Shown here: positions 32,348 through 63,518 of the stretch, piece after piece | Layout of the letters: every line of letters starts with the position of its first letter | Position numbering within the stretch: the stretch's first letter is position 1 | Assembly: GCA_963813025.1 (NCBI GenBank) | Contig: CAWEXO010000002.1 | Location: 1 to 64,000, forward strand | From: an uncultured Verrucomicrobiae bacterium | GTDB lineage: Bacteria > Verrucomicrobiota > Verrucomicrobiia > Chthoniobacterales > JAFAMB01 | Length of the DNA stretch: 64,000 nucleotides | Direction: 5' to 3' | Made by a program: the position numbers and the translations under genes | The notes under the pieces: generated by a model | Databases searched by the model: none | The model's input: the letters and a program-made list of their open reading frames with translations, nothing else | What the model was told of the DNA's origin: nothing

Positions 32348-32572
32348 CTGCCAAGGAAAAGCGCGGCTGCTTTTGAAAGCTCCGCTGGGCAGAAGCGCTC
32401 GATGCCCTGGGTGGGATCGCGGCGGAGGACAGGCTTAAGTTCTGGTGGCATAGTGGTGTAACCGGCGATTTGCCACCACTTTCCTGCGGACGCCGAAGCG
32501 AAGGGGTTGGGCTTGATTGACCTTCTGGTGCGAACCGCGGTAATTGGGAGCAAGCGGAGTTTCGAGAGTGTT

Positions 32573-39939: not shown

Positions 39940-40987
39940 CTTCTGAGTCCATTCCATCCAGCAACAGATCATCCTCGATGACATTCCCGATCGTCGGCTG
40001 GTGCATGGCCGAGAGCACATCAAGCTGTTCTGGAACATTATTCTTGGGCACAAGCATTCGCGTACGGGTGGTAATCGTTTGCGCACCAAACTGAAAGGTA
40101 TTGACCGGAGCAGACTTCGGGCGCAACCGGGTGATTTCTTCTTCCGTGCCGAAGAACAGAGCCTGGCTCGGGCACACAGATGCGCACATCGGCAGTTTTC
40201 CGATCGAAGTACGATCGTAGCATTGGTCGCACTTCATCATTAACTCCATGCGAGTGTTCATCTTTGGAATACCGAAGGGACAGGCCAGAACACAGTTGTT
40301 GCAGGCGATGCAGCGCGGCTTCCTTGCCGATTGCACCACGCCGTCGCCCGTACGCTTGATCGCATGGGCGGGACAGACTTCTGCGCATGTGGGCGAGTCG
40401 CAGTGCATGCAAACGACTGGCACGGTCTGCGTCGAGTTAGCCCGATCGTTCTTGTTTCCGGCACCGGCGCTCACCATACAAAGTCGGCCATTGTAATCAA
40501 TACAAGGTGTTTTCAAACAGATCCGGGCGAACTTGCCCATCAGATAACACTTCTCGGTCGTCAGGCTCGCTCCGCTCAGAGTCGCAAAGGCCTTCGGGCC
40601 GTACGTTGTCTGAACGCGGTCGATCTCTTCCGCAACTTTTCGGATAGCCTCGTCATAGGGTACTGGACTAAACCCATGCGGATTTCTCGAGTCCCGTTTG
40701 TAGGCGTGCAGCAGACGATCCGCATGCGCACCCTGTAAATAGCGTTTTACGCCTTTTGGGCACAGTTTCCCTCTGTTGAACGGGAAGTCGTACCAAGGTT
40801 CATATCCAATCACCTGATTGTCCTTCACCAAGAGTTCGATTCCGCATTGCTGCCCGCAAAAGCAGCAGTGTGTTTCCACTGCTTTATCCGGCACAACACC
40901 GGCATCCAATCGCATTCCAGTCGATCTCGAAAGATGCGGGCCGAATTGTTCTGTAATCGATTCAGGTTCTACAACAACTGTGGCCAT
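39926..40987 (-). pseudogene. In-frame fusion of a molybdopterin oxidoreductase N-terminus with the C-terminal part of a 4Fe-4S (DmsB/NrfC-like) subunit
   Basis: [32 protein letters not shown], then [42 protein letters not shown]; junction near 40450. Confidence 0.82.
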
Positions 40988-41005
40988 AGATCTCCATTCA
41001 ACTCT

Positions 41006-42154
41006 TTACGAATGGAAATTCTCGCGATCTTCAATGTCAAGGGGGCCTTCGCCTAATCCAGGATTGACCGGTGTCGGCATGGGCGCGGGGAGCACGACTC
41101 TTTCGATCGTCGAAGCACGTGGAAATCGCAGCCTGCCCTGAGCCAACGCTAACAGCGCCCGGCGGCAGCGCGGACAAATCCACTGATAATGCTCGACTTG
41201 GTCATGAGCTGCTTCATATCGATAGCCCAACTCGCGTTGAACTTTGATTAGGTCTTCGACGTGCATGCGAGAAGAGAACGCATGTCCGCATCTTCGGCAT
41301 CTGGCAGCTTCTTCGGCTCGCGCCACATCCTTGTAAAAGCTAACCCCAATCTGCGCGGGTCGCTGAAAGATGTGGAAAAACTTTCCAAACGGAAGCCAAA
41401 GAAGCGTGACGATCACTGTTACTGCGTGCGTGAGCGACAGAAACTCATAGCCACAGCCGCGTAGCCAGGTGTAGCTCACTGTAAGCAGCAGACCCGTGAG
41501 ACTTACGGCAAATAGCAAAACCAACGGCAGGATATCTTCCCGGAAAAACTGAAGCGACGCTGCTCCTTCGTCACGCATTCGGCGATGCATGGCAATCAGC
41601 ACACCGGCAATGACAAGGAACGCCGCCCAGACCAGGCCGTGAAAAAGGACAAAACCGAAAATCGATTCTACTTTAAAGACAGAGGTGGGAAAACCGAACA
41701 CAAAGATCCGGTAGCTGTCCAGATCGCCAGGAACGGATTCGAACATAAGCCAGCCAAAAACCAGCGGAAAAGTGATCAATGCTGCAATGATACAGCCCCA
41801 CATGATTAGCCAATGAGCCAGCCAGCGGTATTTTCCTCGTAGCCAGATAAAATGATTGAATGCGAAATCGGCTGTAACTCGCTTAACCCAATTGATGGCG
41901 TTCTGTTTGCGGTAAGGCCGTTTGAAAAAGGCTTCCCAACCGCGTCGCCAATAGAGGGCCGTCGGTGGCCGTTGAAGCCACATTGCGTAACGATAAGTGA
42001 GCCCGAAAGCGGCAAACAACGATGCGAAAGTGTAGGCAACGAGAGCACTATCGAAGCGCGAGAGATTGCGGGACCCAACAATGATCGCCACACCGAGCAG
42101 CACGGTTACAATGAACGCCCAGACGACCGATTTAACGACTTCGCGTTTCATCAC
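41006..42154 (-). CDS. Membrane anchor subunit (NarI/gamma-like; often mislabelled MFS) of a molybdoenzyme operon
   Basis: Multi-[37 protein letters not shown]-terminal CxxC...CxxC. Confidence 0.7.
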
Positions 42155-42261: not shown

Positions 42262-42807
42262 CTAGAGAATCGACCAAGGCAAAATAGGTTGCTCCTGATG
42301 ATAAAGCACCAGCACAGGAAACTCAGAATAACGCACGATACGCTCGGCGTAGCTGCCCTCTTTCAGTTGCGCGACATTGACCGGCTGGCGCGTCGAGATG
42401 GCAATCAGGTCCACTGCAAGTTCTCTGGCGCCGAGAAGTATCTGGGTAACGACATCACCGGATCGCAGGCAGAACCAATCCTGACCGCAATCCATAGCGA
42501 GGGCGCGGCCTATCTTCTGAAGCGCTCTCGTCGCCTTCTGCCGAGGATCAGGGCGCGGGCCGGGGCCAGGTCGATCGACCGCACGATCTAGATAAGCGGC
42601 GTCTTCCAGTACATGCAGGAGGGTTAGCTTTGCGTTGGCAGACCGGGCAAGATCGACAGCATATCGGGCAACTAAGAGGGCTGCGCTGCTCAAGTCTGTC
42701 GGAACCAGGATATGTTTGACGTTCGAGGGTAGCTCGGCGAGATGCTCGCCTTTCTCACCATGGAAGAGAACAGGCTTAATGCTCCCGGCTTGAAGGAGTG
42801 CTTTCAT
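42262..42807 (-). CDS. Universal stress protein
   Basis: KHILVPTDLS, KLTLLHV, GDVVTQIL, VDLIAIST, GSYAERIVRYSEFPVLV. Confidence 0.88.
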   Translation of the reverse strand: MKALLQAGSIKPVLFHGEKGEHLAELPSNVKHILVPTDLSSAALLVARYAVDLARSANAKLTLLHVLEDAAYLDRAVDRPGPGPRPDPRQKATRALQKIGRALAMDCGQDWFCLRSGDVVTQILLGARELAVDLIAISTRQPVNVAQLKEGSYAERIVRYSEFPVLVLYHQEQPILPWSIL

Positions 42808-46038: not shown

Positions 46039-47433
46039 ATGAGCTATGAATACCAACTGATTGTAATTGGATCGGGATCCGGCGGAAAGGACGCTGCAAT
46101 TCTCGCGGCGCGCTCGGGCCTCCGTGTCTTGATCGTCGAAAGAGAAAGTCTTGGCGGGACCTGCTTTCATCGAGGTTGTTACGCCATCCGAGCTCTCCGC
46201 GCGTGTGCCATGCATTATGGAAAGACCGAAGGAAGTTCCCGTTTCGGGATGTCGATTGACCTCCTGGAAACCGGATGGAGCGACTGGATTGGCACGCAGA
46301 GGCGCGTGAGTGCCAGGCTCACCGAAGACCTTAGTCGAACCTTGGAATCACTCGAGGTGAACATCCGTTTCGGAACCGCAAAGCTCCTCAATCCGAACGA
46401 AGTAGAAATATCCGATCCCTACGGCGCTCGGGAGCGAGTTTCCGGACAGAATATCATCATCGCGACCGGCTCGCGCCCAGCTTTCTCGAGCGGCCAAAAC
46501 TCGAAGATCCTGAACTCCGACCGAATGCTTAAAAACGTCGCAGTTCCGGCGCATCTGCTGATCATTGGCGGAGGCTACATCGGCTGCGAATTCGCCTCTA
46601 TTTATCGAACGCTGGGAGCACGAGTGACTCTGGTCGAGGAGCAGGAACATTTGCTTCCGAGCTGGGACCGGATCGCCGGCGATCAAATCTGGGATTCGTT
46701 AGAAAAACAAGGTGTAACCATTCATCTGAACGCTAAAATCGATCTACCCGATGCAGAAACGTGGACTGCACGTCCGCTCTTCAATCTGCGCGACAGCACG
46801 ATCGTTTCCCCTGAGCTCACGCTGATCGCGACCGGCCGTAAACCAAACATCGAGGAACTAGGACTGGAATCGGTCGGGATCACCGCAAAGGCATTCATTC
46901 CGGTCAACGAAACGATGCAGACGGCGCAGCCAAACGTCTTCGCGATTGGCGACGTGAATGGGCTGGCGATGCTTGACAGTGTGGCTTTCGCCCAAGCCAG
47001 AGTCGCCGTTCAAACTATCCTGGGCAACCCAGCTCGGTTTGATTATCGCTGGATACCACGATGCGTTCATACCGATCCACCGGTCGCCTCTGCCGGATGG
47101 ACGGAAAAAGAGGCTATCGCCGCAGGCCATGAGATCGGAGTGCTGACCGAAACGGCGCGACTGATGACGGAAGACGACCGCAGCGTCGTTGATCCCGAGC
47201 CGATAAAGCTCAAGCTCGTTGTTCTGCCGGAAACCAGAGCCTTACTAGGTTGCCAGGCTGTCGGCGCCGAGGCAGCCGAAATCGTGAATCTGGCGGCCGC
47301 GGCTCTCCATGCTGGATTAACTGTGACCGATCTTGCGGACCTCGCGATGATCCATCCAAGCGCTTCAGAGGCGCTCGTTCGGTGTCTGCAAAGTCGTTTC
47401 GATATGCCCGCAAGATCTACGGTAGCGCGGTGA
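46039..47433 (+). CDS. Pyridine nucleotide-disulfide oxidoreductase, Lpd-like, with intact CxxxxC
   Basis: VIGSGSGG, GGTCFHRGC, ATGSRP, IIGGGYIGCEFA, AIGDV, HPSASE. Confidence 0.9.
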   Translation: MSYEYQLIVIGSGSGGKDAAILAARSGLRVLIVERESLGGTCFHRGCYAIRALRACAMHYGKTEGSSRFGMSIDLLETGWSDWIGTQRRVSARLTEDLSRTLESLEVNIRFGTAKLLNPNEVEISDPYGARERVSGQNIIIATGSRPAFSSGQNSKILNSDRMLKNVAVPAHLLIIGGGYIGCEFASIYRTLGARVTLVEEQEHLLPSWDRIAGDQIWDSLEKQGVTIHLNAKIDLPDAETWTARPLFNLRDSTIVSPELTLIATGRKPNIEELGLESVGITAKAFIPVNETMQTAQPNVFAIGDVNGLAMLDSVAFAQARVAVQTILGNPARFDYRWIPRCVHTDPPVASAGWTEKEAIAAGHEIGVLTETARLMTEDDRSVVDPEPIKLKLVVLPETRALLGCQAVGAEAAEIVNLAAAALHAGLTVTDLADLAMIHPSASEALVRCLQSRFDMPARSTVAR

Positions 47434-48455: not shown

Positions 48456-48784
48456 GCTACACCTGCGGACCACCAACCCGATCAAATCGATGTTCGGTAC
48501 TGTTCGGCTACGAACCCATCGTACCAAGGGTCATTGCACTTCCTCGTTCCGTTCTTGCTCTTCAGGTATGCCTCAGGAGTTCTAAACCTAGCTTAGCTAG
48601 TGGCTCGTTTGGGCAAGGCGCGCCATTAGGGCTTGCCGTGTATTCGGGCCATTCCGGATCGCAAGAATCGCGGGTGAGGAAGGCGTCCGACCCGGACCAA
48701 CCCATGTTCAGCATTGACCAATTTCTGCACGGCACGCGCAAGCGGCCGGCTCTAGAGATTAGAGCAGATTTCTGGATAACAAAG

Positions 48785-49714
48785 ATGGAGTCCTACCCGA
48801 AATTTTCTCCTTTGGATGCCGTCCGTAAACACGACTTTGTAGAGCAGCTCAGTCGTGCGCGAATATACCAGGATTACGAGCTGGCCTTTGGAAAGACAAC
48901 GAAGTTACCTTTGGAACTCTCCTCGATTCACGCACCGTGGACGGTCCACCGCGGACGAAGCAAGTTCACAAACCCTTTCTGCACCGTCCTCGCACGAACG
49001 AGCAAAAATTGCGGCAGATGCCTAGAGCTCCGGCGAAACCTCACCAGCGCAAATATTTCGGAAACGCAGACAGCGAGATGCTTCGTCGGACTTACAAATA
49101 CCGCCGTGCCAGTGAAGGTGGAAGAGCGCGTCATTGCGTTTTTGCAAACCGGCCAGGTTTTCCTGCGAACACCGAGCGCGCAGCGATTCAAAAAGATTAC
49201 TACCAAGCTCATGAGTTGGGGCATGAAGACTAACTTGGCCCGACTCGAGAATGCGTATTTCCACTCCCGCGTGGTTTTGCCCAGCGGATATCGTGCGATA
49301 GTGCGACTTCTGGAAATTTTCGCGGAACATCTCGGATTGATCGCCAACGAGATCGCGCTGCAGCAAGGTAACGGGGACTCGCTGATGATCAGACGCGCGA
49401 AACATTATGTTGCGAGTCATCAATCTGATCCTATCACACTGGGACAGATCGCTCGTGCCCTTAATATCAGCACGTTCCACTTTTGCAGGATATTTAAGCA
49501 GACAACAGGTCTAACGTTTGTGGAATACTTGAGCCGCGTCCGTATTGAGCGGGCTAAAGTCTTGCTGCATAAAAATGATCTACGCGTCAGCGAGATAGCG
49601 TACGAGGTAGGGTTCCAATCGATCACCCACTTCAACCGGATCTTTCGCAAGCTTGTTGGTCACTCGCCGACAGAATACCGCTCCAGATTGGCCAGAGCCA
49701 ACCCAGAGGGATAG
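48785..49714 (+). CDS. AraC family regulator with PocR-type sensor domain (paralogue of 30274)
   Basis: IYQDYE.AF, NPFC..C..C, CFVGL..TAVPV, LQTGQV, STFHFCRIFK, VSEIAYEVGFQSITHFNR. Confidence 0.92.
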   Translation: MESYPKFSPLDAVRKHDFVEQLSRARIYQDYELAFGKTTKLPLELSSIHAPWTVHRGRSKFTNPFCTVLARTSKNCGRCLELRRNLTSANISETQTARCFVGLTNTAVPVKVEERVIAFLQTGQVFLRTPSAQRFKKITTKLMSWGMKTNLARLENAYFHSRVVLPSGYRAIVRLLEIFAEHLGLIANEIALQQGNGDSLMIRRAKHYVASHQSDPITLGQIARALNISTFHFCRIFKQTTGLTFVEYLSRVRIERAKVLLHKNDLRVSEIAYEVGFQSITHFNRIFRKLVGHSPTEYRSRLARANPEG

Positions 49715-50054
49715 ACGCCCGGCTAGATGAAGGATTCCTCTGCTTGTTAGGCGGACGCCGTTTCCTTTTCGAGGTGGTGCAAATTCAGTTCAAATCCTTC
49801 TTACATTTTGCCCTATGGTTTTTTTGAAAGCTAAAATGTGGCGGCTGCCGCGTTAAAGGGGAGCAGGTCCAGCAAGTATGCCAGATGCGGTGCCTTCGCG
49901 AAAGCCGCCATTCATTGGAGTAGAGCCCGTTTGGCCCTCGATCAAGCAAGAAAAGTAAAGAAAAAGTCAATTTAGGTGGAGCGTTAATTTTCCAGAACAA
50001 TCACCATGCTTCCCGTTCGGAAACAAGGCATCGAGGTCGCCCAACCTAACCCCT

Positions 50055-50387
50055 ATGAAAATCATGAATCGGCCGGGTTCATTGAAACCGCGACTCCTCG
50101 TTGGGATCGGCCTTGCAGTGATTGCTGCGGTCATTTGCACAGTGTGTGTCCCCTTCGTTTCTGCGGGTCCGCCCACTACACCGGAGAAGCCGGTACAAAC
50201 GAGTACGGCTTCTGGTGCCGCCTTATACGCCATCCACTGCAGCCGCTGCCACGCGGAACGATATGCCACCGAATTCACAGCGGCCCATTGGAAGACCATC
50301 ATGATCCACATGCGTGTGCGGGCAAACCTCCCGGCGGCGCAAGCTCAGGAGATCCTGAAGTATCTTCAGGAAAATAGCGGCCAGTAA
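50055..50387 (+). CDS. Small monoheme cytochrome c
   Basis: N-terminal signal/TM, CSRCH, downstream HMRVRANL (candidate Met ligand). Confidence 0.85.
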   Translation: MKIMNRPGSLKPRLLVGIGLAVIAAVICTVCVPFVSAGPPTTPEKPVQTSTASGAALYAIHCSRCHAERYATEFTAAHWKTIMIHMRVRANLPAAQAQEILKYLQENSGQ

Positions 50388-50406
50388 TGAGCGACTAAAT
50401 ACATCG

Positions 50407-51888
50407 ATGGACATTCGCTCCAGAATCCTCGGAATGATAGCGGCAGGATGTGTGCTCGGAATCACCTCGCCCCGCGCCGTTGCAGAGGTAACTGACGAAG
50501 AGTTCAATGCGTTGAAAGAATCGGTCCGGCAGCTGGGTGATAAAGTGCAGAAACTGGAGGAGACGCACGAGCAAGACCAGCAAACTCACGCGCAGGACCA
50601 ACAGAAAATCCAACAGCTGCAACAGCAGCTGGAGAAAACCCAAGCGACGGCCGCTGAAGCGCAGCAGAAAGCCAAGTCTGCGACCCAGGTCCAGCAAAAG
50701 TTCCACTGGCTCGAAGATCAATTGGGGGAAACGCGCAAGACCGCCGCCGAGGCTGAACAGAAAGCCGAAGCGGCGGCTCAGGTGCAACCGGTTGCCCCGG
50801 TTCCCAGCGGAGCCCTGGCGACGCACAGCTTCACCCTGGCAGGAGACGCGGAGGTCCAATTTGGCAAAGTCCAGGGACAGCACAGCGCATTTATGCTAGC
50901 GGATTTTGCGCCGATCTTCCTGTTTCGGGCGACCGACAAGGCTCTATTTGAAGCGGGTTTTGATGTCACGTTGTCGAACGGCGCAGTGACGTTGGCGAAC
51001 GGACAGACGGGCAATAGCGGTGTTTCGACCGCAGTAGATCTTAGTTTCGCTCAATTGGATTACCTGCTGAATGACTATGCGACGGTTGTGGCCGGGTATA
51101 TGCTGCTTCCGCTGGGCACCTATACCGAGCGATCGGCCGGGTGGCTGAACAAGATACCGGATGACCCGCTCCCCCGCGATATCCTGCCGACCAACGGCGC
51201 AGGTCTCCAGCTGCGGGGGGGCATACCTATCGGGCAATCCGGACAGTCGCTCACCTATTCCGGTTTTGTCGTCAACGGGCCAGGCTCAGCGGACGGGTCT
51301 GGAAACGCAACTTTCGTTGATAGCAGCGGCAACGTATTGCCAAATCTTGACTTTGGTAATGTCGGCACTCAATCCAATGGCAATAGCGGAAATTTGCACG
51401 CTAATCCCTCCGGCGGTGGCCGCATCGGGTGGTTCTTTCCGCTTAAAGCCAATTATGATTTCGAGCTTGGAGTTTCGGGCCAAACAGGTCCATGGAACGA
51501 CGCGGGAAATCGGCTGTGGTCGGCTGCCGTTATCGATGCGGCCCTGCACATTACTCCGTTTTTCGAATTGAAGGGGGAGTATATGTATACTTGGCAACAG
51601 ACCAACAACAGGGGAACTGTTCAGCCGCAGGGTTGGTGGGTCCAGGCAGCCTACAAGCTGGCAGGCTTTAGCCTGAGCCTCCCGCTCATTAACAACGTCG
51701 AGTTGGTCGGCCGCTATGACACGGTGTTGGACGGGCTCGGGACGAGGACTAACCGGGAAACGGTGGGTTACGTATACTACATCACCAATACGCTCTTATT
51801 CGAAGGTGCTTACGAATGGTTGCAAAGCCACGGGCCAAACAAGCTGCCGGAAAACAAGTGGGTGTTTCAGCTCTCCCTCGGATTCTAA
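50407..51888 (+). CDS. Outer-membrane beta-barrel (porin-like) with N-terminal coiled coil
   Basis: Signal peptide, Q/E/K/A-rich coiled coil, alternating amphipathic strands (AQLDYLLND, FELKGEY, WWVQAAY), C-terminal KWVFQLSLGF. Confidence 0.8.
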   Translation: MDIRSRILGMIAAGCVLGITSPRAVAEVTDEEFNALKESVRQLGDKVQKLEETHEQDQQTHAQDQQKIQQLQQQLEKTQATAAEAQQKAKSATQVQQKFHWLEDQLGETRKTAAEAEQKAEAAAQVQPVAPVPSGALATHSFTLAGDAEVQFGKVQGQHSAFMLADFAPIFLFRATDKALFEAGFDVTLSNGAVTLANGQTGNSGVSTAVDLSFAQLDYLLNDYATVVAGYMLLPLGTYTERSAGWLNKIPDDPLPRDILPTNGAGLQLRGGIPIGQSGQSLTYSGFVVNGPGSADGSGNATFVDSSGNVLPNLDFGNVGTQSNGNSGNLHANPSGGGRIGWFFPLKANYDFELGVSGQTGPWNDAGNRLWSAAVIDAALHITPFFELKGEYMYTWQQTNNRGTVQPQGWWVQAAYKLAGFSLSLPLINNVELVGRYDTVLDGLGTRTNRETVGYVYYITNTLLFEGAYEWLQSHGPNKLPENKWVFQLSLGF

Positions 51889-51913
51889 ATCAATGAAATG
51901 GTGATCTATAACA

Positions 51914-52360
51914 ATGAACATCAAGCTATCTACTGTCCTCCTGGGTGCGGCCGCATTCGGCCTGATCGGAGCAGGATTGGCGCTCTCCCAGGCCGTTGAC
52001 ACTCGGATTGAGCAGTTCGACAAAGGCCCGGCGACGATCAATGTCTCCGGGTACCCGCCAGCAATCCAGGGATATTACGCAGTCTTTACCCAGAAGTGCT
52101 CCCAGTGCCACAAGTTGAGCCGCCCGATTAACTCTGATTTTGTGCTGCCCGATGAGTGGTCGCGCTACATCCACCGCATGATGAGCAAGCCCGGTTCGGG
52201 TATAGATAGCGCCTCGGGCGCGCAGATTTACGCATTTCTGGTGTACGACTCCAGCGTCCGCAAGAAGGCGATGCTTGACGCAAGGCTCGCGAAGCTCTCG
52301 CCTGCCGAAAGGGCCGCTGTGGAAGCCAAGATCAAGGCAGTCGTGGCCAAGTATAGGTGA
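51914..52360 (+). CDS. Monoheme cytochrome c (c551-like domain)
   Basis: Signal peptide, KCSQCH, W..YIHRMMSKPG. Confidence 0.82.
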   Translation: MNIKLSTVLLGAAAFGLIGAGLALSQAVDTRIEQFDKGPATINVSGYPPAIQGYYAVFTQKCSQCHKLSRPINSDFVLPDEWSRYIHRMMSKPGSGIDSASGAQIYAFLVYDSSVRKKAMLDARLAKLSPAERAAVEAKIKAVVAKYR

Positions 52361-52381
52361 CGCGCTCCAGGGTTCGCTAGC

Positions 52382-52855
52382 GTGGAAGAACTGGCTTCAT
52401 CCGCGATGGCTCCGCGCTCACGTCGCGATTTCATCGCCAACATCTTTCTGAGCACAGGAACGGTGCTGGGGCTGGGGAGCTTGGCCTATCTGTTCCTCGA
52501 ATACCTTTATCCGGTCGTCCCGCCCATCAAGCTCGTTGAGGTGCCGGCGGGAAAGCCGGACGACATTCCACCCGACGGCGTGCGGCTGGTTCAGTTGCCG
52601 GAAGGACCAGTCATGCTGGAGAAAGGGGAGAACAAAGTTCGCGCCTTCTCCGCCATTTGCACGCACCTGGGTTGCACGATCCAATGGCATCCGGAGAAAA
52701 GACAATTCATCTGCCCGTGTCATCAGGGGATTTATGATTTCAATGGCAATGTCCTGTCCGGTCCGCCCCCGCGCCCGTTGGAGAAACTCCCGGTAAAGCT
52801 GCGTGACGGTCAGGTTTTTGTGCTCGTGAATTCGCTTAAAGAGGAACACCTATGA
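52382..52855 (+). CDS. Rieske iron-sulfur subunit of a cytochrome bc-type complex
   Basis: Tat motif SRRDF plus TM, CTHLGC, CPCHQG, GPPPRPL. Confidence 0.92.
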   Translation: MEELASSAMAPRSRRDFIANIFLSTGTVLGLGSLAYLFLEYLYPVVPPIKLVEVPAGKPDDIPPDGVRLVQLPEGPVMLEKGENKVRAFSAICTHLGCTIQWHPEKRQFICPCHQGIYDFNGNVLSGPPPRPLEKLPVKLRDGQVFVLVNSLKEEHL

Positions 52856-53886
52856 GGCGTGCGGTCCGCTGGATTGAAGAACGGATTCCGGTGGATCACG
52901 AAATCGTGCGCAAAAAGTTGCGCGAACCGTTGCCGGTTCACATGAAAAGCTGGATTTTCTGCCTGGGCGGAACGCCGGCCATGCTCTTTTGCATCCTGGC
53001 GGTTACCGGAATTCTTCTGACGTTTTACTATGTCCCCTCTCCCGCTCAAGCCTACGCCAGCGTGAGCAATATCAGCTTCAAGGTGCGCATGGGCTGGTTT
53101 GTCCGCGGCATACATCAAGGAGCATCCCAGTTGATGATCGTGACCGTGCTCCTGCACATGATCCGCGTCTTCTTCACCCGTGCCTACCGTAAGCCGCGGG
53201 AGCTCAACTGGATGTGGGGCGTGGCACTTTTCTTCGTCACCCTGACATTCGCGTTCACCGGATACTCGCTCGTTTACGACCAGCTTTCTTATTGGGCCAC
53301 TACTATCGGGACCAACATGATTGCGGCAGTGCCGCTGATCGGCGAGCCGTTGCTCTACCTGCTGCGTGGCGGCCCCAACGTGAATCCAAACACCCTCAGC
53401 CGCTTTTACGACTTTCATATCGGGGTGCTGCCCACGATGATGACGCTGCTCATTGTCGGTCACCTAGCCCTGGTGCGCTTGCACGGCGTGGCCCCGCTGC
53501 GTGGCGATCCGCGCCGCGAAACCTATCCGTTTTTTCCTGATCACATGCTGCGAGAAGCGATTATTGGCCTGCTCCTCCTGGTTTGCCTGGTTAATTACGT
53601 CAATTTTTTTCCTCCCTCGGTCGGGGCGCCGGCAACGCCGGGCAACACCCCGGGACACATCCGTCCGGAATGGTACTTCTTTCCAACCTACCGCTGGCTC
53701 AAGCTGACGTCCCTGCCCGTGGGAATCGGAGGAAGCATCCTCTTCGTCGCCTGCCTTTTTCTGTGGCCATTCATTGACGCCGCGCTGGAAAAAATCGCGC
53801 CTCGGAAGGGTTTGTGGGTGATCGTAGGGAGCGCGTTTTTCCTATTAACCATCGTCTTTATGCTCTGGGAAGCCATTGCTGGTTGA
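52852..53886 (+). CDS. Cytochrome b (b6-like with fused subunit IV region)
   Basis: IFCLGG, RGIH-x13-H, RKPRELNW, FTGYSL, FH-x14-H, IRPEWYF. Confidence 0.93.
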   Translation: MRRAVRWIEERIPVDHEIVRKKLREPLPVHMKSWIFCLGGTPAMLFCILAVTGILLTFYYVPSPAQAYASVSNISFKVRMGWFVRGIHQGASQLMIVTVLLHMIRVFFTRAYRKPRELNWMWGVALFFVTLTFAFTGYSLVYDQLSYWATTIGTNMIAAVPLIGEPLLYLLRGGPNVNPNTLSRFYDFHIGVLPTMMTLLIVGHLALVRLHGVAPLRGDPRRETYPFFPDHMLREAIIGLLLLVCLVNYVNFFPPSVGAPATPGNTPGHIRPEWYFFPTYRWLKLTSLPVGIGGSILFVACLFLWPFIDAALEKIAPRKGLWVIVGSAFFLLTIVFMLWEAIAG

Positions 53887-53901
53887 ACGGGGACGCGCTC
53901 G

Positions 53902-54384
53902 ATGAGTATCATTACTCAAAAATATCTGGTTGGAATTATGGGGTTAATCCTGGTCGGATCGGTCATCGCCACCGGTTATCTGGATTCTCAACGCCGTAAA
54001 AGAGAGAATGTCCCGGGCGCTTCAGAAGCCTCGCCGCCCGCGGCACCTCTCACTCCCGAGCTGCAGCACGGGTTGAAGATTTATGTGGAATTCGGTTGCG
54101 AGGCCTGCCATGGAGTGGGCGGCAAAGGTGGTGTGCACAATTTCAACGCCCAGAGCGGACAGGCGGTCCCCCCGCTGAACCACGTGGCCGACGGCTATAC
54201 CAAACCCGAACTGATCGCAAAGATCCAAACTGGCGTTCCTGTCGAGCCGAAACTAGATCCGAAGGGCCCGGAGCCGCCATTACACATGCCCGGTTTCAAG
54301 GATATGCTTACTCAGGACCAATTAAACGATCTGGTCGCTTACCTCTTCAGCCTGAAACCCAAGGGAGAAGAATCCGGTTTCTAG
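53902..54384 (+). CDS. Membrane-anchored monoheme cytochrome c
   Basis: N-terminal TM, GCEACHG, PPL, HMPGF, LVAYL. Confidence 0.88.
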   Translation: MSIITQKYLVGIMGLILVGSVIATGYLDSQRRKRENVPGASEASPPAAPLTPELQHGLKIYVEFGCEACHGVGGKGGVHNFNAQSGQAVPPLNHVADGYTKPELIAKIQTGVPVEPKLDPKGPEPPLHMPGFKDMLTQDQLNDLVAYLFSLKPKGEESGF

Positions 54385-54466
54385 CCCATGTTTCCCAGCC
54401 GAGATGCAGGCGTAGGTTCCCGCGGTCTTTCAGTTAAATATATCTTTGTAAGACGCGACTGATCGC

Positions 54467-56373
54467 ATGAAAAGGTTTTTCCCCTGGGTCATCAGTCTTA
54501 TTTTTTTGCTTTGGGCCATCACCAAGATGATGCCGGTCAAGCAACCGTCCGGTTTCGACCTCGACGGGTTTGGTCGGCTCCCGATATTGGTCAACGGCCG
54601 GGTGATGCCGATGGATACATTGGCTCGCGTCTCGCTGTTTGCCATGAATCACCACGGGACATGTACGGCCTCCGATGGTAAGAGCCAGCCGCAGCGCGAG
54701 TGGTTGCTGGATGTTTTCATGATGCCCGAGCGAGCGGATCTCGCAAAAGTGTTTGAAGTGACCAATCCCGATATTCTCGATCTCTTTGGCTGGCAGGAAG
54801 CGAAAGGCAAATCGAATAACTACTCGCTTAGCGACCTCGAACCATTCTTTGGCGAGATTGAAAAACAGGCGGACTAGCCGCGCGAACAGAAGCTGAAACC
54901 CGTAACGCCTTCCAGAGGGCCATCCTCAGACTGCGGGATGCCTTGGGTCTATACATTGAGTTGAGAAATACAGTTCAGCCCGACGACTCGGCCGATTTTG
55001 GAAAAGAAATTCAAACGTTCAGCTCAGTAATTCAACCCGGCATGCAGGCCATTCGCGACAAGGAGGCGAACAAGGCGTTTAACAGCCAGGATTTGGACCG
55101 CATTCTTTTGTTCACGCAACGCTACCGGAAACTCGGTCAGGTCAAGTACGCCTATGCGATCCCGAATCCGAACGGAACGGCAGGCGGTGACCGGTGGCAG
55201 CACATTTCGTTTGCACTGCTCAGCGCCATCACCTCGGGAAAGCTGCCTTATCCAGCCACGATCTATGGACGTCTCATCTCAGCTTATCGAAGCGGAGATA
55301 CACAGGGATTCAACCAAGCCATTAGGGAATATAATCAGTATCTTGGGCAAACGACCCCCCAGTACCTGACTCGGCCTCATCTCGAGTTCTTCTTTAATCA
55401 AGCCCAGCCATTCCCCCAGACGATGGTTTTGTATATGGTTGTCTTTGTTTTGGCTCTGGCCTCTTGGCTGAAGTGGCCGAAAACTCTGGGGAAGACTGCT
55501 GCTATTCTTCTTCTATTCGCGTTTCTCCTTCACACTGCGGGGCTCGTCACAAGGATGTATTTGCAGGGCCGGCCGCCAGTCACTAACCTGTACAGCTCCG
55601 CAATTTTTGTCGGATGGGGAGCAGTTCTTCTCTGCCTGTTCCTCGAACGCTTCTACAAGAACGGAATTGGCAGCGTGTGCGCTTCTGCAATCGGTTTTGT
55701 GACCTTGTTGATCGCTCAAAACTTGCAAGTCGATGGCGATAGCCTCGAGATGTTGCGCGCTGTGTTGGACACAAACGTCTGGCTTGGGACTCACGTCGTC
55801 ATGGTGACTCTCGGCTATTCTGCGACATTTCTCGCCGGATTTTTGGGAATCATTTACATTTTTCGCGGCCTGCTGACGAAATCCTTCGATGAGATGACTG
55901 CAAGATCGCTCGGACGCATGATGTACGGAATCGTCTGTTTCGCTACTTTGTTCAGCTTCATTGGTACGGTGCTTGGCGGTATCTGGGCTGATCAATCCTG
56001 GGGACGGTTTTGGGGTTGGGATCCAAAGGAAAATGGGGCGCTCCTCATTGTGATTTGGAACGCGATTATTTTGCATGCACGATGGGGTGGCTACGCCCGC
56101 GAACGAGGTGTCGCGGTTCTGGCGGTATTTGGCAATATCATAACCAGCCTATCATGGTTTGGAGTCAACATGCTGGGCGTCGGTTTGCATTCCTACGGCT
56201 TCATAGATGAGGCGTTTGGACCGCTCCTGGTTTTTATCCTTAGCCAACTCGCCATTGTCGGTCTGGGGATACTGCCGCAGAAATACTGGCGCGGGATTCA
56301 GGCGCGCGTAAAGCCCATCGGCATGGGGCAGCCCGACGCGATGTTGGCGGGGAGTGCCGTGCCGAAACACTGA
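54467..56373 (+). pseudogene. ccsA: System II cytochrome c maturation protein (CcsA/ResC-like), frameshifted near 54870
   Basis: GRLPILVNGRVMPMDTLAR; second frame GRPPVTNLYSS, LRAVLDTNVWLGTHV, WADQSWGRFWGWDPKENGAL, LGVGLHSYG. Confidence 0.85.
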
Positions 56374-57402: not shown

Positions 57403-58887
57403 ATGAGTGAGATCCTTCGGCTGAGAAATATTTCGAAGACTTTCCCGGGGGTGCTGGCGCTGCAGAACATTTCTTTCGACTTGAACGAAGGCGAGGTGCA
57501 TTGCCTTTGCGGTGAAAACGGAGCAGGCAAGTCAACCCTGATCAAAATTCTCTCGGGCGCATATCAACCGGACGAAGGCGGAGAAATCATCTTCCGCGGC
57601 AAAAAGGTCGCCCTGAATCCGCATTTCGCCATGTCGATTGGCATCCAGACGATCTATCAGGAACACGTCGTTTTCGACAATCTGAGCATCGTGGAGAACA
57701 TCTTCACCGGGTCAGAAATCGTGAGACGGGGTTTTCTGCAGAAAAAAGAAATGCGCCGTCAGACTGCCGAAGTTCTCAAATATCTGAAAGGCAATCTAAG
57801 TCCGGACAGCAAACTAGGCGAACTCAGCAGTGGCGAACAAAAAACGGTCGAGATTGCTAAAGGCCTCGTGTTCAAAAGGCAGGTGATCATCCTGGACGAA
57901 CCGACGGCATCCTTCTCGTCAACTGAGATTGATAACCTCCTGGACATCATTCAGACGGTCAAGAAAACTGGGCTCGGGATCATTTACATTTCGCATCACT
58001 TGGAAGAGGTCTTCAAAATCGCAGACCGGATCACCGTGTTGCGCGACGGACGCAAAGTCAGCGCCTACGACATAACCGGCCTCACGAAGAATACTCTGAT
58101 CAAAGACATGGTCGGCCGCGACCCCTCTACATTCTATCGTCGCGAACGGGTACCGATCGGAGAAGTCGTTTTCGAAGCCCGAAGCGTTTCCGGGAACGGC
58201 GCAAGAAATATCTCATTCGTCCTTCGAAAAGGAGAAATCCTCGGGATCGCCGGAATGGTGGGATCGGGCCGCTCCGAGCTTATGAACGTTCTGTTTGGAA
58301 GTGCTCATCTCGACTCCGGCGAAATCCTGATCCGCGGCAAAGCGATTAAACATTCCAATCCGATGTCGGCCATCAGAAACAAAATGTGTTTCATAACCGA
58401 AGACCGGCAAAACACAGGCCTTTTTCTTCCCCAGACCATCGCGCAGAATGTAACCGTCGCGAACCTGGTGAATACTCGGGCATTCGTGGTCAGGCAGGCC
58501 GACGACTGGAGGACAGGCGATCGATTCGTCAATCAACTCAATATTAAGGCCAGGGACTCCCGGACGCGCGTCGTAAACCTTTCCGGCGGCAACCAGCAGA
58601 AAGTCGTACTCGGAAAATGGTTTAACACGAACGGTGAAATCTTCATATTCGATGAACCGACCCTCGGCATCGATGTCGGCTCCAAACAGGAGATTTACAA
58701 GGTGATGGTTGACCTCCTCAAACATGGAAAAGCCATCATCATGGTGTCCTCCGATATGCCCGAAATCATCTCCATGAGTGACCGGGTGATTGTCATGAAG
58801 CACGGTCAAACAGCAGCCGAACTGACGACGGAACAGATTACGGAGGAAAACATCCTCACCCACTCGATCGGTGACAAAGCAATATGA
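57403..58887 (+). CDS. Sugar ABC transporter ATP-binding protein (CUT2)
   Basis: GENGAGKSTL, LDEPT, YISHHL, LSGGNQQKV, DEPTLGIDVG. Confidence 0.95.
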   Translation: MSEILRLRNISKTFPGVLALQNISFDLNEGEVHCLCGENGAGKSTLIKILSGAYQPDEGGEIIFRGKKVALNPHFAMSIGIQTIYQEHVVFDNLSIVENIFTGSEIVRRGFLQKKEMRRQTAEVLKYLKGNLSPDSKLGELSSGEQKTVEIAKGLVFKRQVIILDEPTASFSSTEIDNLLDIIQTVKKTGLGIIYISHHLEEVFKIADRITVLRDGRKVSAYDITGLTKNTLIKDMVGRDPSTFYRRERVPIGEVVFEARSVSGNGARNISFVLRKGEILGIAGMVGSGRSELMNVLFGSAHLDSGEILIRGKAIKHSNPMSAIRNKMCFITEDRQNTGLFLPQTIAQNVTVANLVNTRAFVVRQADDWRTGDRFVNQLNIKARDSRTRVVNLSGGNQQKVVLGKWFNTNGEIFIFDEPTLGIDVGSKQEIYKVMVDLLKHGKAIIMVSSDMPEIISMSDRVIVMKHGQTAAELTTEQITEENILTHSIGDKAI

Positions 58888-60029
58888 GTGACGACAACTC
58901 TCCGGCGTTCCCGCAGCAGGCCCGAGCGCAACAGAAGCATCGGCAGGCCGGTTCTATTTTCGAGAGGCACGAGAACTTCACGGTCCTCTCGATCTTTGTC
59001 GGGTTTGTGATGGTTATAACCATTCTGCAGCTGATCATGTGGGGCGGCCAGAAGTTCCCGACGTTCATCACCCCGGTGAACCTTTTAAACATCCTCCAGC
59101 AGGTGGGGGTCCCCGGGATTGTGGCCGTCGGCATGACGATCGTGATGATCTCCGGTGGGATCGATCTTTCGGTGGGAATGCTGGCTTCTCTGGTCTCCAT
59201 CGTAACCGCGCTGGGCATATCGAAATGGCACTTCGGCGTCGGTCCTTCAGTCCTTCTCGGAATCGTATCGGCGGTCGTGCTGGAGACGGTGATGGGTTTC
59301 ATTATTTCCCGTACCAAAGTTGAACCCTTTATCATTACCCTGGGCGGGATGATCACTTTTCAGGGAATCGCGCTTCTTCTCTGCAATTCCCGCGAGGTAA
59401 TCATGAATGGGGAGCTCGATTTTCTGAAGGTTAACCTCATCTACGGAGCAAAAGATCCGATTAGCCATCTCAACCTGATCATCCCCCCATACGCCCTGAT
59501 ATTTTTCGCGATCGCTTTCCTGGCCGGCTTGCTCCTGAATTACACCAAATACGGCCGCAGAATCTACGCTGTCGGGACCAACCCGAACGCAGCCTACCTG
59601 GCGGGCATCAACGTCCAGAACATGAGACTCTCGGTCTACATTATCATGGGGGTCCTGGTCGGGATCGGCGGTGTTCTGCTTCTCGCCCGGGTCAATACTG
59701 GCATCATCACGCTCGGGCAGGGCCTGGAAATCGACAGCATCGCCATGGTCGTCATCGGCGGCACCGCGCTAAGAGGTGGCAAAGGAAACATCGTAGGAAC
59801 GTTGATCGGAGTCTTCTTTCTCGGGTCGATCGGGAACGCGATGAATATGTTGCGGCTGCCATCTGAAGTGCAATTCGTCGCCAAAGGGCTCGTCGTCATT
59901 ATCGCGGTTTCCGCCGGCGACGTCTCCTCCAGAATTTCCGGGTTTTTATCAAGGAGGAGAGAGCTGCGATCGGGCGCGGCGCAGACAACGCTGGGGAAGA
60001 AAGGGATAACAGTGGAATCGACCAAATAA
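58884..60029 (+). CDS. Sugar ABC transporter permease
   Basis: GGIDLSVG, PFIITLG, YGRRIYAVG, IAMVVIGGT..GGKG. Confidence 0.93.
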   Translation: MSDDNSPAFPQQARAQQKHRQAGSIFERHENFTVLSIFVGFVMVITILQLIMWGGQKFPTFITPVNLLNILQQVGVPGIVAVGMTIVMISGGIDLSVGMLASLVSIVTALGISKWHFGVGPSVLLGIVSAVVLETVMGFIISRTKVEPFIITLGGMITFQGIALLLCNSREVIMNGELDFLKVNLIYGAKDPISHLNLIIPPYALIFFAIAFLAGLLLNYTKYGRRIYAVGTNPNAAYLAGINVQNMRLSVYIIMGVLVGIGGVLLLARVNTGIITLGQGLEIDSIAMVVIGGTALRGGKGNIVGTLIGVFFLGSIGNAMNMLRLPSEVQFVAKGLVVIIAVSAGDVSSRISGFLSRRRELRSGAAQTTLGKKGITVESTK

Positions 60030-60093
60030 TAAATCAGTTATTGTAAACAAATCACGTGAGATGCACAAAGACGATCAGAGGAGGAGCAACGTA

Positions 60094-61188
60094 ATGAAGC
60101 GTTTGCATCTAGTATTGACAGCTGGCTTCGCGGTATTGGGAGCCACGAATTTGACGGCCACCACCGCGCACGCCGCAGATGCCGGCAAAGGCAAAGTTGT
60201 CGGATATTACATGGATGCCGCCGATGACTACTACAAAGCGGCATTTCAGGTATTCAAAACGCTCGGTAACAAAGCCGGTTGGCAGGTTTTGGATGTCGTT
60301 GGACAAGGAACTGCTCCGGAACAGGTTGCCGCGGTTGAAAACTTCATTACCCAGAAAGTCGACGCAATCGTTGTCGTTCAGAATTCACCACAGACAACGT
60401 CCGAATGTCTGAAGAAGACTCATGCCGCCGGGATCCCGGAATTTCACACATCTCATAAACCGCCGATTGAACCGGGACTGGCCGGCTTTACCACATTCGA
60501 CTTTGTCGCAGACGGCGAACTCGCCGGACAATCGGCAGCAAAACATGGGGTTAAAAGGGTGATCATGATTGAAGGCAAACTCGGTCAAGGCAGCGCGGCC
60601 GGTCAGACCCAGGGTTTTCTGCAAGGATACAAAAAGGCCGGCAAAGATATCGGCAACCTTCTCGATAGCGTCGGCGTCAGAGGCGCCGGCGGCAAAGATC
60701 TGCAAGTCGTCTTCTGGGGATCCGGCAATTGGTTCGCGGATCCAGCGAAAAAAGTGATGGAAGATGCCATCACAAGCCTCGGACCAGATGGCTTTGACGG
60801 CGCCTACGTGCAGAACGATGAAATGATGACCGGCGCATTGCAGGCCATGGAAGAAGCAGGGCTCGACTCGAGCAAATACTGGCTCGGGTCCAGTAATGGC
60901 AAAGAAAAGTCCTGGGACTGGGTAGAAAAAGGCAAAACCACGATGGACGTCAACCAATGCCCTACCCTCGAAGCGGATATCCTGTTCCAGCAAGTGAGCG
61001 CCTACTTCGACAAAAAGCCCTATAAGAAAGGGGTCTTCGTAAACTTTACCGCGTTTGAGAAAGACACGCTCGACAAGAACAAGATGATCCCCTGGATCCT
61101 CAACGATTACATGCAGAAACGCGCAGCGAACGCATTCAACCACGATATTAACGATCCCGCCTTCCGGGCGGATCCGGAATTTCAATAG
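60094..61188 (+). CDS. Sugar ABC substrate-binding protein 1
   Basis: RBS gaggag, signal peptide, ENFITQKVDAIVV, QNDEM. Confidence 0.88.
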   Translation: MKRLHLVLTAGFAVLGATNLTATTAHAADAGKGKVVGYYMDAADDYYKAAFQVFKTLGNKAGWQVLDVVGQGTAPEQVAAVENFITQKVDAIVVVQNSPQTTSECLKKTHAAGIPEFHTSHKPPIEPGLAGFTTFDFVADGELAGQSAAKHGVKRVIMIEGKLGQGSAAGQTQGFLQGYKKAGKDIGNLLDSVGVRGAGGKDLQVVFWGSGNWFADPAKKVMEDAITSLGPDGFDGAYVQNDEMMTGALQAMEEAGLDSSKYWLGSSNGKEKSWDWVEKGKTTMDVNQCPTLEADILFQQVSAYFDKKPYKKGVFVNFTAFEKDTLDKNKMIPWILNDYMQKRAANAFNHDINDPAFRADPEFQ

Positions 61189-61241
61189 GAGTTATAAAGA
61201 AAGACAAAAAAGTTGCCCTCAAACGGCTAAAGATAAAGCAG

Positions 61242-62330
61242 ATGAAACGTTTGGTATTATTGTTAACAGGTTTGGTTTTTCTGGGAACCGTGAGCTTCCC
61301 AGGCGGGAGCACGCAAGCCGCGACCGGGAGTAAAAAGGTCATCGGCTATTACATGGACGCGTCGGATGACTACTACAAGGCAGGCTTCCAGGTATTCAAG
61401 GCGCTTGCCACGAACGCGGGCTGGGACGTGCTGGATGTTGTGGGACAGGGTACCGCTCCCGAGCAGATCGCGGCTGTCGAAAACTTTATCACCCAGAAGG
61501 TCGACGCAATCGTGGTCGTGCAGAACTCGCCGGCGACCAGCTCCGAGTGCTTGAAAAGGGCTCACGCCGCGGGCATCCCCGTCTTTCACCTCACGCATAA
61601 TCCGCCCAACGAGCCGGGCTTGGCCGGCTTTGCCGGATTTGACTGGGTCTACGACGGAGAGCTTGCCGCCCAATCGGCCATGAAACACAACGTCAAGAAA
61701 CTGATCATGATCGAAGGAAAGCTCGGTCAGGGCACTGCGGCCGGTCAAACCCAAGGCTTCCTTCTGGGCTACAAGAAGGCCGGTAAGGATATCGGTAATC
61801 TTCTTGATAGTGTCGGGGTAAGAGGCGCCGGCGGCAAGGATCTGCAGGTGGTCTTCTGGGGTTCCGGCGGTTGGTTCGCGGATCCAGCCAAAAAGGTCAT
61901 GCAGGACGCGATCACCTCATTAGGCCCAGACGGCTTTGATGGTGCCTACGTCCAGAATGATGAAATGATGACCGGCGCTCTTCAGGCCATGCAGGAAGCC
62001 GGTCTCGATCCGAGCAAATACTGGCTTGGGTCAAGCAACGGTAAGGAGAAATCCTGGGATTGGGTGGCCAAAGGGTTGACAACTATGGACGTTAATCAAT
62101 GCCCAACCCTCGAGGCCGATATTTGCTTTCAACAGATCACCGCCTATTTCGCCGGAAAGCCTTACAAAAAGGCCGTCTTCGTAAACTTCGTTCCGTTTGA
62201 GAAAGATACGCTCAACAAGACTGCAATGATTCCCTGGATCCAGGCGGATTACATGAAAAAGCGGGCCGCCAATGCTTTTAAGTACGACATCAACGATCCC
62301 GTGTTTCGGGCCAATCCAGCCTACCAGTAA
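61242..62330 (+). CDS. Sugar ABC substrate-binding protein 2 (tandem paralogue of 1)
   Basis: Long stretches identical to the 60094 protein. Confidence 0.88.
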   Translation: MKRLVLLLTGLVFLGTVSFPGGSTQAATGSKKVIGYYMDASDDYYKAGFQVFKALATNAGWDVLDVVGQGTAPEQIAAVENFITQKVDAIVVVQNSPATSSECLKRAHAAGIPVFHLTHNPPNEPGLAGFAGFDWVYDGELAAQSAMKHNVKKLIMIEGKLGQGTAAGQTQGFLLGYKKAGKDIGNLLDSVGVRGAGGKDLQVVFWGSGGWFADPAKKVMQDAITSLGPDGFDGAYVQNDEMMTGALQAMQEAGLDPSKYWLGSSNGKEKSWDWVAKGLTTMDVNQCPTLEADICFQQITAYFAGKPYKKAVFVNFVPFEKDTLNKTAMIPWIQADYMKKRAANAFKYDINDPVFRANPAYQ

Positions 62331-62501
62331 TTCTGTAAAACTTACGTCCCGGCACATACATCGACGAGTTGATCCGTTCGAGCCGCGAAAGTATTCCCAA
62401 CTTTCGCGGCGGCAACGAATCGTCGCTCGCTCTGTGCGCCCAGTTGCTTTTGATCAATTTAGAAAAGATTATGTCATCGATTGTTTTGGAGGTGTTCTAA
62501 C

Positions 62502-63518
62502 GTGAAAATAAGTTCCCCTTGTTACGTCCTGCTGTCTCTCGCGGCTGCTGCCCTTCCGCTCACCGGCTTGGCTGCTCAAAAAAATCTAACCTTCGGTTAT
62601 ATCACTCCTGGTCCGGACACCTGGTATAAAAGAGATGTCGATGGTTTTGTCCGGGCGGCCAATATGCTCGGCATAAAGACCATCGTTCTGAACTCAGACT
62701 ATGATGCGCAAAAAGAGGTTTCGAACATTGAGTCGCTGGTGACCCAAGGCGTCGACGGAATGGCCATTTTTTCTTTTAACCAGCAGGGCGCCATCACGGC
62801 CGCTAAGAAATGCCAGGACGCGCACATTCCCCTGGTGACCGTCGATAATTGTGGTCAGGCTCTGAAAAGCGGCACTGATATCGTCGCCGCGATCGATTTT
62901 GATTGGAAAGCAATGGGTAATAATTATGCCGAATACATCGCCCAAAATTACCCCGGCAAGAAGGTCGCTTTAATTACCGGGCTGCTCGAACACCTGCCCG
63001 TACAGCTGATTACCGGCGCCATGAAGCAGCGGATGAAAGAACTTGGGAAGAATGAAATCGTCGCGGTTCGAGATGGCAAATATAACCCGTCTGTGGCGGT
63101 CAGTCAGGCCCAAGACCTGATCCAATCCGGCGTAAAGTTCGATATCCTCTGGATTATGAACGAGGATATGGCCGCCGCGGTCATTCGCTACCTGAAGAAC
63201 CAAGGCATGTTGGACCAGTATATTGTCATGGCTCAGAACGGATCGCCGGTGGGTATTCCGCTCGTCCAGGACGGTGAGCTCAACTACACCATCAGCAGTT
63301 CACCCGGTTGGGAGGGCATGGTGGCCTTACTGGCTCTTTACCAGCATGTGTCCGGTAATTCGAAAACTACCGGTCAACAAATCATGTTGCCGGTCATCCC
63401 CGTAACCAAAGGAACGATCCTCGACAAAAAACAGGTGGTTCCCTGGGAATATGACCCGGTCTGGATCGAATTAACCAAGCAATACTTCCCTAAACTGGGT
63501 GCTCACTTACCTGGGTAG
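62502..63518 (+). CDS. Sugar ABC substrate-binding protein 3
   Basis: RBS ggaggt, GTG start, signal peptide, LVTQGVDG, IPLVTVD, NEDMA. Confidence 0.85.
   Translation: MKISSPCYVLLSLAAAALPLTGLAAQKNLTFGYITPGPDTWYKRDVDGFVRAANMLGIKTIVLNSDYDAQKEVSNIESLVTQGVDGMAIFSFNQQGAITAAKKCQDAHIPLVTVDNCGQALKSGTDIVAAIDFDWKAMGNNYAEYIAQNYPGKKVALITGLLEHLPVQLITGAMKQRMKELGKNEIVAVRDGKYNPSVAVSQAQDLIQSGVKFDILWIMNEDMAAAVIRYLKNQGMLDQYIVMAQNGSPVGIPLVQDGELNYTISSSPGWEGMVALLALYQHVSGNSKTTGQQIMLPVIPVTKGTILDKKQVVPWEYDPVWIELTKQYFPKLGAHLPG

Follow-up and report, generated by a model that had tools for sequence, protein, structure and literature searches.

Relationship to described cytochrome-porin systems

Cyc2 has been reported to consist of an OprO/OprP-like barrel of 16 strands, to which a monohaem domain is fused (PMC8406198). 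Such a barrel, one c-type haem and links to periplasmic carriers and inner-membrane complexes characterize Cyc2, Cyc2PV-1 and Cyt572 (PMC8406198, PMC13741234), and a comparable combination is encoded in the window, the 64,000-nucleotide stretch of an uncultured Verrucomicrobiae bacterium (contig CAWEXO010000002.1, positions 1 to 64,000; genome G000, 4.4 Mb, 80% complete) analysed here. On its forward strand, a gene for a small exported monohaem cytochrome c (cytA; 50055..50387) directly precedes a gene for an outer membrane porin (50407..51888). This pair is a fixed unit among related loci, and the remaining genes represent an exchangeable feed. We consider it a real, conserved and undescribed cytochrome-porin variant, whose function we infer: with a probability of roughly 0.45, the CytA protein and the porin together would make up a redox pore of two proteins, analogous to Cyc2 but unfused, that passes electrons outward to small dissolved acceptors. 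In broader terms, electrons are likely exchanged through the pair between respiration and iron, copper or humic-type compounds in solution outside the cell. No description of the cytA-porin pair was found in the literature, although one confined to a supplementary table or figure might have been overlooked.

The pair differs from Cyc2 in that the haem protein is the product of a separate gene, located up- or downstream of the porin gene, and is DHC/SorB/PscC-like, and in that the window operon includes its own Rieske/cytochrome b complex. The motif PXFAR[Q/K][T/Y] preceding CxxCH, as reported for Cyc2 (PMC8406198), occurs in none of 79 CytA and 60 CytB proteins and in none of the window's nine proteins. 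Being unfused, with a different haem domain and lacking the PXFAR motif, the pair is thus Cyc2-like in architecture and not a Cyc2 member. The MtrAB, MtoAB and PioAB complexes combine a decahaem partner with a 26-stranded barrel, the strand number reported for MtoB and PioB (PMC13741234), in contrast to one haem and 16 strands here. Multihaem cytochromes c with 8, 10 or more haems, together with barrels of greater size, likewise set apart PCC3 and PCC4 (PMC5566968) and a Methylobacter cluster (PMC13322032), while a Verrucomicrobia cluster (PMC5615132) encodes an octahaem periplasmic cytochrome and a porin of at least 20 strands, neither of which is encoded here.

Operons combining a porin with a Rieske/cytochrome b complex are already known. 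The Geobacter extHIJKLMNOPQS cluster resembles the window locus in that an OprO/P-like porin is clustered with Rieske, cytochrome b and c-type cytochrome genes, but differs in its cytochromes with 4-12 haems, its rhodanese and its selenoprotein (PMC5877670). Neither the multihaem ExtKL, ExtM, ExtN and ExtS proteins nor the rhodanese ExtH has a counterpart in the window operon, and the ExtP model gives the window cytochrome b a score of 222.8, short of its cut-off of 290. As to orthology with ExtI, the comparison covered the NCBIfam families, none of which matches the barrel.

Conservation of the cytA-porin linkage

A genome scan returned 191 porin relatives, the best 80 of which were kept as loci. 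At 79 of these 80 loci cytA adjoins the porin gene, upstream in 78 cases and downstream, within a dihaem protein, in one (L077), while the single miss (L079) comes without upstream sequence. A metagenome scan with a distant subfamily returned 431 relatives, of which 80 were kept. The porins of this subfamily are 24-35% identical to that of the window, form 25 clusters at 60% identity and show a reversed gene order (class I monohaem cytochrome, porin, cytA): cytA is located downstream at all 67 loci with downstream flank, and a cytochrome is encoded upstream of, or fused to, the porin in 55 of 59. The cytA domain is also found directly downstream of the porin in all three plasmid matches (Legionella anisa, Glaciecola and Alteromonas macleodii). 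Although kin among the loci are not independent, both subfamilies and the plasmids show the linkage. Nine weaker porin matches (56-116 bits) served as a control, and none has cytA within 1.5 kb; some adjoin genes for binding proteins or flavin mononucleotide (FMN)-binding proteins.

In a tree of 81 barrels, the 73 cytA-linked or fused porins form one clade apart from eight controls (support 0.91). The sample comprised every second locus of the first set together with all loci of the window type, every fourth locus of the second set and three of its loci with a Rieske/cytochrome b complex, with one control left out. Rather than lacking synteny, an outcome that would have refuted the sequence-only reading of this locus, the porin homologues are tightly syntenic with cytA, although the conservation of gene order extends to the cytA-porin pair and not to the genes downstream, all of which are swappable. 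The lack of a Pfam or NCBIfam match tying the porin to electron transfer might suggest an ordinary porin that lies beside a Rieske/cytochrome b operon by chance. The linkage survives deep divergence, order reversal and plasmid transfer, however, and is absent in the controls, such that this explanation is highly improbable and largely refuted by the synteny counts.

The closest relatives of the porin derive from records of Chthoniobacterales or Verrucomicrobiae. At the order level, the porin was identified in 22 of the 251 genomes of the window's order, including 8/29 of its family, and cytA is adjacent at 22 of the 23 loci, the miss lying at a contig end. Among 300 other genomes sampled from the phylum at large, two encode the porin. 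Loci titled 'Acidoferrum' or 'Binatia' were rejected as evidence of range, as they represent contigs of the window's own phylum that had already been sampled. The porin belongs to a large unnamed family, with 1628 matches among 8000 candidates scored and about 1,000 representatives at 50% identity (1008 matches, in only part of which cytA was checked).

On the plasmid of A. macleodii KD01 (L204:19480-38141; NZ_CP147980.1) the porin-cytA pair (WE348_RS21980 and WE348_RS21975) heads a co-directional string of genes next to copper-resistance genes, which encodes Met-rich proteins, an FNR/2Fe-2S membrane protein, a heptahaem cytochrome c and a [NiFe]-hydrogenase cluster. The L. anisa plasmid (L201:4675-8861; NZ_CP082853.1) encodes a porin to which three class I haem domains are fused; genes for a cytA-dihaem protein and a trihaem cytochrome come next.

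Predicted structure of the porin

The porin comprises a signal peptide, a helical N-terminal region of about 100 residues and a predicted 16-stranded OprO/P-type barrel (residues 132-493) that ends in Phe. The AlphaFold model of the barrel has 16 long strands (predicted local distance difference test score (pLDDT) 89.7; predicted template modelling score 0.86), and its best structural match among 48,161 chains is OprP (2o4v; Z 27.5, root mean square deviation 3.2, 302 aligned residues, 18% identity), followed by a match at Z 24.0. MtrB is absent among the 50 structural matches listed, which alone excludes nothing. The sequence-only reading had left the porin to be placed among the Cyc2, MtrB and OprO/P models; the predicted fold is of the OprO/P type, which is the type reported for Cyc2, and not of the MtrB type. 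Sequence searches with the porin and its profiles against solved structures gave nothing significant, and no Pfam or NCBIfam match was obtained beyond weak coiled-coil matches. The window porin does not match PF07396, while a relative (P0112) scores 24.5 against a cut-off of 20.9 and 60-68% of the members in the porin's atlas neighbours carry this domain.

In comparison with OprP and OprO, which are porins selective for phosphate (PF07396), the barrel is acidic and poor in basic residues, with no conserved pst or pho neighbours. It contains 18 Arg and Lys and 29 Asp and Glu among 362 residues (net -11), as opposed to the 47 basic residues reported for OprP (PMC5877670). This composition, taken over the whole barrel, speaks against a basic arginine ladder or lysine cluster for anions. 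Given the acidic barrel and this difference in basic residues, a phosphate channel is unlikely.

In its strong form, the sequence-only reading would amount to a wire that crosses the outer membrane and ends at solid minerals or electrodes, one cytochrome lying inside the barrel and the coiled coil spanning the periplasm. The anatomy of the operon, the helical region and the analogy to porin-cytochrome complexes would accord with such a wire. The barrel, however, has 16 strands where MtrB and MtoB have 26 (PMC13741234), each cytochrome carries one haem and no surface cytochrome is predicted. The coiled coil, judged from the sequence and from weak matches to coiled-coil families, is moreover nearly absent in members that keep cytA: the helical region is reduced to about 20 residues in locus L082 and is absent from the Alteromonas porin. 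A conduit to the cell surface is therefore doubtful, since one haem and a 16-stranded barrel would better fit a redox site at the mouth of the pore, and a wire to solid substrates is very unlikely.

Monohaem cytochromes and natural fusions

One CxxCH motif is found in each of the three cytochromes c of the operon (CytA, CytB and CytC) and none in the porin. CytA (CSRCH) matches PF09626 at 22.4 bits against a cut-off of 22.2, with weak TorC and SorB matches, and is classed as a DHC/SorB/TorC-C-like, small exported monohaem cytochrome c. Residues C62, C65, H66, H85 and M86 are invariant in 80 alignment rows, suggesting that the haem is likely ligated by His and Met, the latter through M86, and invariant Arg residues are also retained. 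The predicted model consists of four helices (pLDDT 79), for which Foldseek returned no match at E <= 0.001, the DHC, SorB and PgcA rows all being non-significant. A loose lipobox pattern in 25 of 67 CytA proteins of the distant subfamily is consistent with a membrane-tethered site.

The second cytochrome (cytB; 51914..52360; CSQCH) is distantly paralogous to CytA (hhalign E 9e-5) and is encoded at 59/80 loci. Its profile matches PDB entries 3A9F (E 2e-4) and 7UEA (E 9e-4), both of which we take to be Chlorobium PscC (cytochrome c_z), the acceptor of a Rieske/cytochrome b complex. By its sequence, CytB is thus likely a PscC-related exported monohaem cytochrome c that serves as a periplasmic carrier. 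At loci without cytB (for example, L049:11391-12242) a dihaem cytochrome follows the porin, the first domain of which weakly resembles PccH (PF22297; E 0.004, below cut-off). The third cytochrome (cytC; 53902..54384; CEACH; PF00034) has an N-terminal hydrophobic segment and represents a membrane-anchored class I monohaem cytochrome c, whose domain also terminates dihaem and hexahaem proteins of relatives (phmmer 90-148 bits).

Class I cytochromes are fused to the porin in P0327 and P0346, among the best 150 representatives, as well as in locus L121 and in the L. anisa protein. Natural fusions of this kind suggest a joint function of cytochrome and porin and, probably, physical contact between them. 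In a further porin (P0334), a CytA-like domain without a haem motif is located ahead of the barrel (hhalign 91%, E 1e-6). P0334, P0331 and P0374 are related porins with long acidic N-termini. Another apparent cytochrome-porin fusion, P0284, was rejected as a frameshift artefact.

The Rieske/cytochrome b complex and its replacement at related loci

Between cytB and cytC, the window encodes a Rieske [2Fe-2S] protein (52382..52855; PF00355) with a Tat-like SRRDF sequence and a cytochrome b (52852..53886; PF00033 and PF00032). The Rieske protein contains both Fe-S boxes (CTHLGC and CPCH), with Gly in the position where high-potential Rieske proteins carry Ser, a residue that marks that group. It is thus a Tat-exported protein, likely of the menaquinol type. 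In the cytochrome b, a b6-like N-terminal half is fused to a subunit-IV-like C-terminal half; its best solved matches are cytochrome b6 (E 1e-49), in alignment with which all four His ligands and the Cys of haem c_i are matched, and it retains the PEWY motif of the Qo site. Together with CytC as c-type acceptor subunit, the locus thus encodes the parts of a Rieske/cytochrome b complex. A feed of quinol into this complex is likely, as suggested by the intact b-haem ligands, the PEWY motif, a match to MqnC above cut-off in G000, and a search that detected no RuBisCO in this genome (80% complete).

Further clusters with cytochrome genes are present elsewhere in G000. One (C14:369677-376737) is another Rieske/cytochrome b cluster, which also contains genes for monohaem cytochromes and haem-copper-oxidase-like genes and seems to carry several frameshifts. 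Two others, C2:119641-131000 (beyond the window) and C13:551698-562019, encode pentahaem and monohaem cytochromes and are alternative-complex-III-like by motifs only, the former also including a CcoO-like cytochrome.

Among the 63 genome loci with at least 4.5 kb of downstream sequence, a Rieske/cytochrome b complex is encoded at 36 and absent at 27. The module of the window type, with monohaem cytochrome c, occurs at six of these, while at 30 (34/80 overall) an NfnB/GltD-like NAD(P)-flavoprotein, a Rieske protein, a cytochrome b and a hexahaem cytochrome c are encoded. The two module types are interleaved in the barrel tree. In the distant subfamily the complex was found at 5/80 loci, many of which are short, and three of the five are near-copies on the opposite strand. 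The hexahaem cytochrome and flavoprotein at 30/63 loci, and the loci without a complex, do not support the 'all-monohaem' character as a family trait. As the downstream modules are swappable, neither this character, nor an own maturase, nor a periplasm-spanning coiled coil can be considered a feature of the family.

The flavoprotein-type modules resemble, by their description, the anammox complexes Kustd1480-85 and Kuste4569-74 (PMC12954380). The window shares the b6-like cytochrome b with these complexes but lacks their flavoprotein and multihaem cytochrome c, and no porin is mentioned in the Introduction of that report (PMC12954380). A 640-amino acid neighbour considered as a monohaem enzyme proved to be the NfnB/GltD-like Fe-S flavoprotein. 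In locus L082 (10036-13082) a flavoprotein-type operon is arranged back to back with genes for an NrfA-like c552 nitrite reductase and a tetrahaem partner. Riboflavin biosynthesis genes flank the cassette at 18-19/80 loci (L015:6709-7956, L027:12939-13427 and similar). The riboflavin and LptD genes near some loci were rejected as parts of the system and treated as an insertion site, which the riboflavin flanks probably represent, with a link to a flavin shuttle being possible.

The loci without a Rieske/cytochrome b complex (27/63) could also be read in terms of a specific solute channel, with CytA acting as a gate, sensor or small catalytic haem without respiratory role, for example by reducing or detoxifying a solute that enters, whether an oxyanion or copper or iron destined for uptake or resistance. 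The OprP-like fold of the porin, the precedent of Geobacter ExtI (PMC5877670), the setting of the Alteromonas pair (flanked by a copper-resistance block and a hydrogenase cluster and accompanied by an FNR/2Fe-2S protein and a heptahaem cytochrome c), and the fused domain of P0334 that lacks the haem motif would all suit such a function. However, no transporter, binding protein or catalytic enzyme is conserved across the 80 clustered loci, where electron carriers are what recurs beside the pair, and the porins that do adjoin binding or FMN-binding proteins are controls without cytA. We consider this function rather unlikely.

The cytochrome c maturase gene

The operon ends with a CcsA-family cytochrome c maturase gene (54467..56373; PF01578), which is frameshifted near 54875 in this assembly and split into two frames (54467-54877 and 54862-56373). 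A single intact maturase of 634 amino acids is encoded in a 94%-identical relative (L002), while L004 and L008 show similar breaks. The sole read set found leaves the break uncovered and shows a one-base difference at 54424 (depth 2.5), and the frameshift reflects either an assembly error or a pseudogene. An intact paralogue is present elsewhere in G000 (C14:401834-403864), along with a fragment (C13:430643-431890), and the cell therefore need not depend on the window copy. The maturase is encoded at 9/80 loci (8/58 loci with room for it) and accompanies the operon in close relatives only, such that a dedicated maturase, as proposed from the sequence alone, is not a family trait.

Proposed electron path and its direction

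We suggest that the haem of CytA would be placed where the 16-stranded barrel opens to the periplasm, passing electrons one at a time to small acceptors entering the pore, such as Fe(III) or other metal complexes and small humic quinones. A haem at the mouth is favoured because a single haem, unlike a decahaem wire, cannot span the outer membrane, and because the lumen of a 16-stranded barrel is narrow. In this genome, electrons would flow from menaquinol through the Rieske/cytochrome b complex to CytC, and then by way of CytB across the periplasm to CytA and the dissolved acceptor, under the control of a PocR-AraC regulator.

The same pair could also operate inward, with CytA oxidizing dissolved Fe(II) or Mn(II) that enters the pore, as Cyc2 does, and feeding terminal oxidases, while in relatives the NAD(P)-linked Rieske/cytochrome b complex would run uphill to make NAD(P)H. 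The barrel type common to Cyc2, the acidic barrel, the loci where the pair and a dihaem cytochrome lie near haem-copper oxidase genes, and the 30/63 loci with a module like the anammox complexes proposed for NAD(P)H formation (PMC12954380) are in keeping with inward flow. The Cyc2 haem-domain motif is absent, however, RuBisCO was not found in the incomplete genome, and the window complex, which has no flavoprotein, resembles an ordinary menaquinol oxidase. We consider inward flow unlikely.

Several observations weigh against an outward-directed redox pore. The location of the pair near haem-copper oxidase genes at several loci fits inward flow equally well, and the Rieske/cytochrome b complex accompanies the pair at only 36/63 and 5/80 loci, such that the quinol link is not universal. 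P0334 retains the fusion without the haem motif, a loss compatible with a structural or gating role, while the lipobox pattern is loose and also occurs in 16/79 close CytA proteins, mostly within signal peptides. The maturase is broken in the window. Finally, in the nearest analogous operon, Geobacter ext, the OprO/P-like porin has been characterized for selenite and tellurite and is dispensable for the reduction of Fe(III) citrate (PMC5877670).

When metagenomes are screened for extracellular electron transfer, Cyc2 motifs or multihaem porin complexes are sought, and the pair has neither. We tentatively propose, at somewhat less than even odds, that it represents a second, independently built and widespread class of single-haem outer-membrane redox pore, which Cyc2 and Mtr screens would not see, interchangeable in menaquinol-, NAD(P)H-, oxidase- and hydrogenase-linked chains and with a role in iron, copper or humic cycling. 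The lineages bearing the porin are heterotrophs common in soil and peat records. If the proposal is correct, soil and peat Verrucomicrobiota and some marine Gammaproteobacteria would take part in uncounted metal and humic redox cycling, and a cytochrome-porin system could be built from separate parts. The plasmid copy in the cultured A. macleodii makes this idea directly testable.

Operon organization, regulator and neighbouring genes

The genes from cytA through cytC are separated by 19, 25, 21, -4 and 15 nt, and 82 nt lie between cytC and the maturase gene. Seven closely spaced co-directional genes had been described for this region from the sequence alone; their strand, place and order are correct, but the CcsA gene does not form a single open frame here. 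The clustering exceeds chance, as the gene order recurs in other genomes. A PocR-sensor AraC-family regulator is encoded just upstream on the same strand, as had also been noted (48638..49714; PF10114, 62 bits; PF12833, 94 bits). It likely controls the operon, and homologues are present at 32/80 related loci. An A-rich element between the regulator gene and cytA (49946..49972, forward strand) is near-identical in the window and in 8/79 related upstream regions scanned, all eight being close relatives with the regulator, and represents a candidate regulator site or promoter. An Rfam scan of the window gave no matches.

Further upstream (30214-31149, 31793-33931, 42265-42807 and 46039-47433), the window encodes another PocR-AraC paralogue, which matches the first at E 4e-99, along with two universal-stress-like proteins and a pair of similar pyridine nucleotide-disulphide oxidoreductases, and this stretch looks like a low-oxygen or stress region. 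Downstream of the operon, a sugar-type ABC transporter with three periplasmic binding proteins (57403-63518) is not a conserved neighbour. On the reverse strand, genes at 39394-42154 encode a Rieske protein, a molybdopterin-oxidoreductase-like fragment and a membrane protein, resembling a nitrate-reductase-type cluster that is apparently broken, and transposase-like open reading frames are present at 34575-37403.

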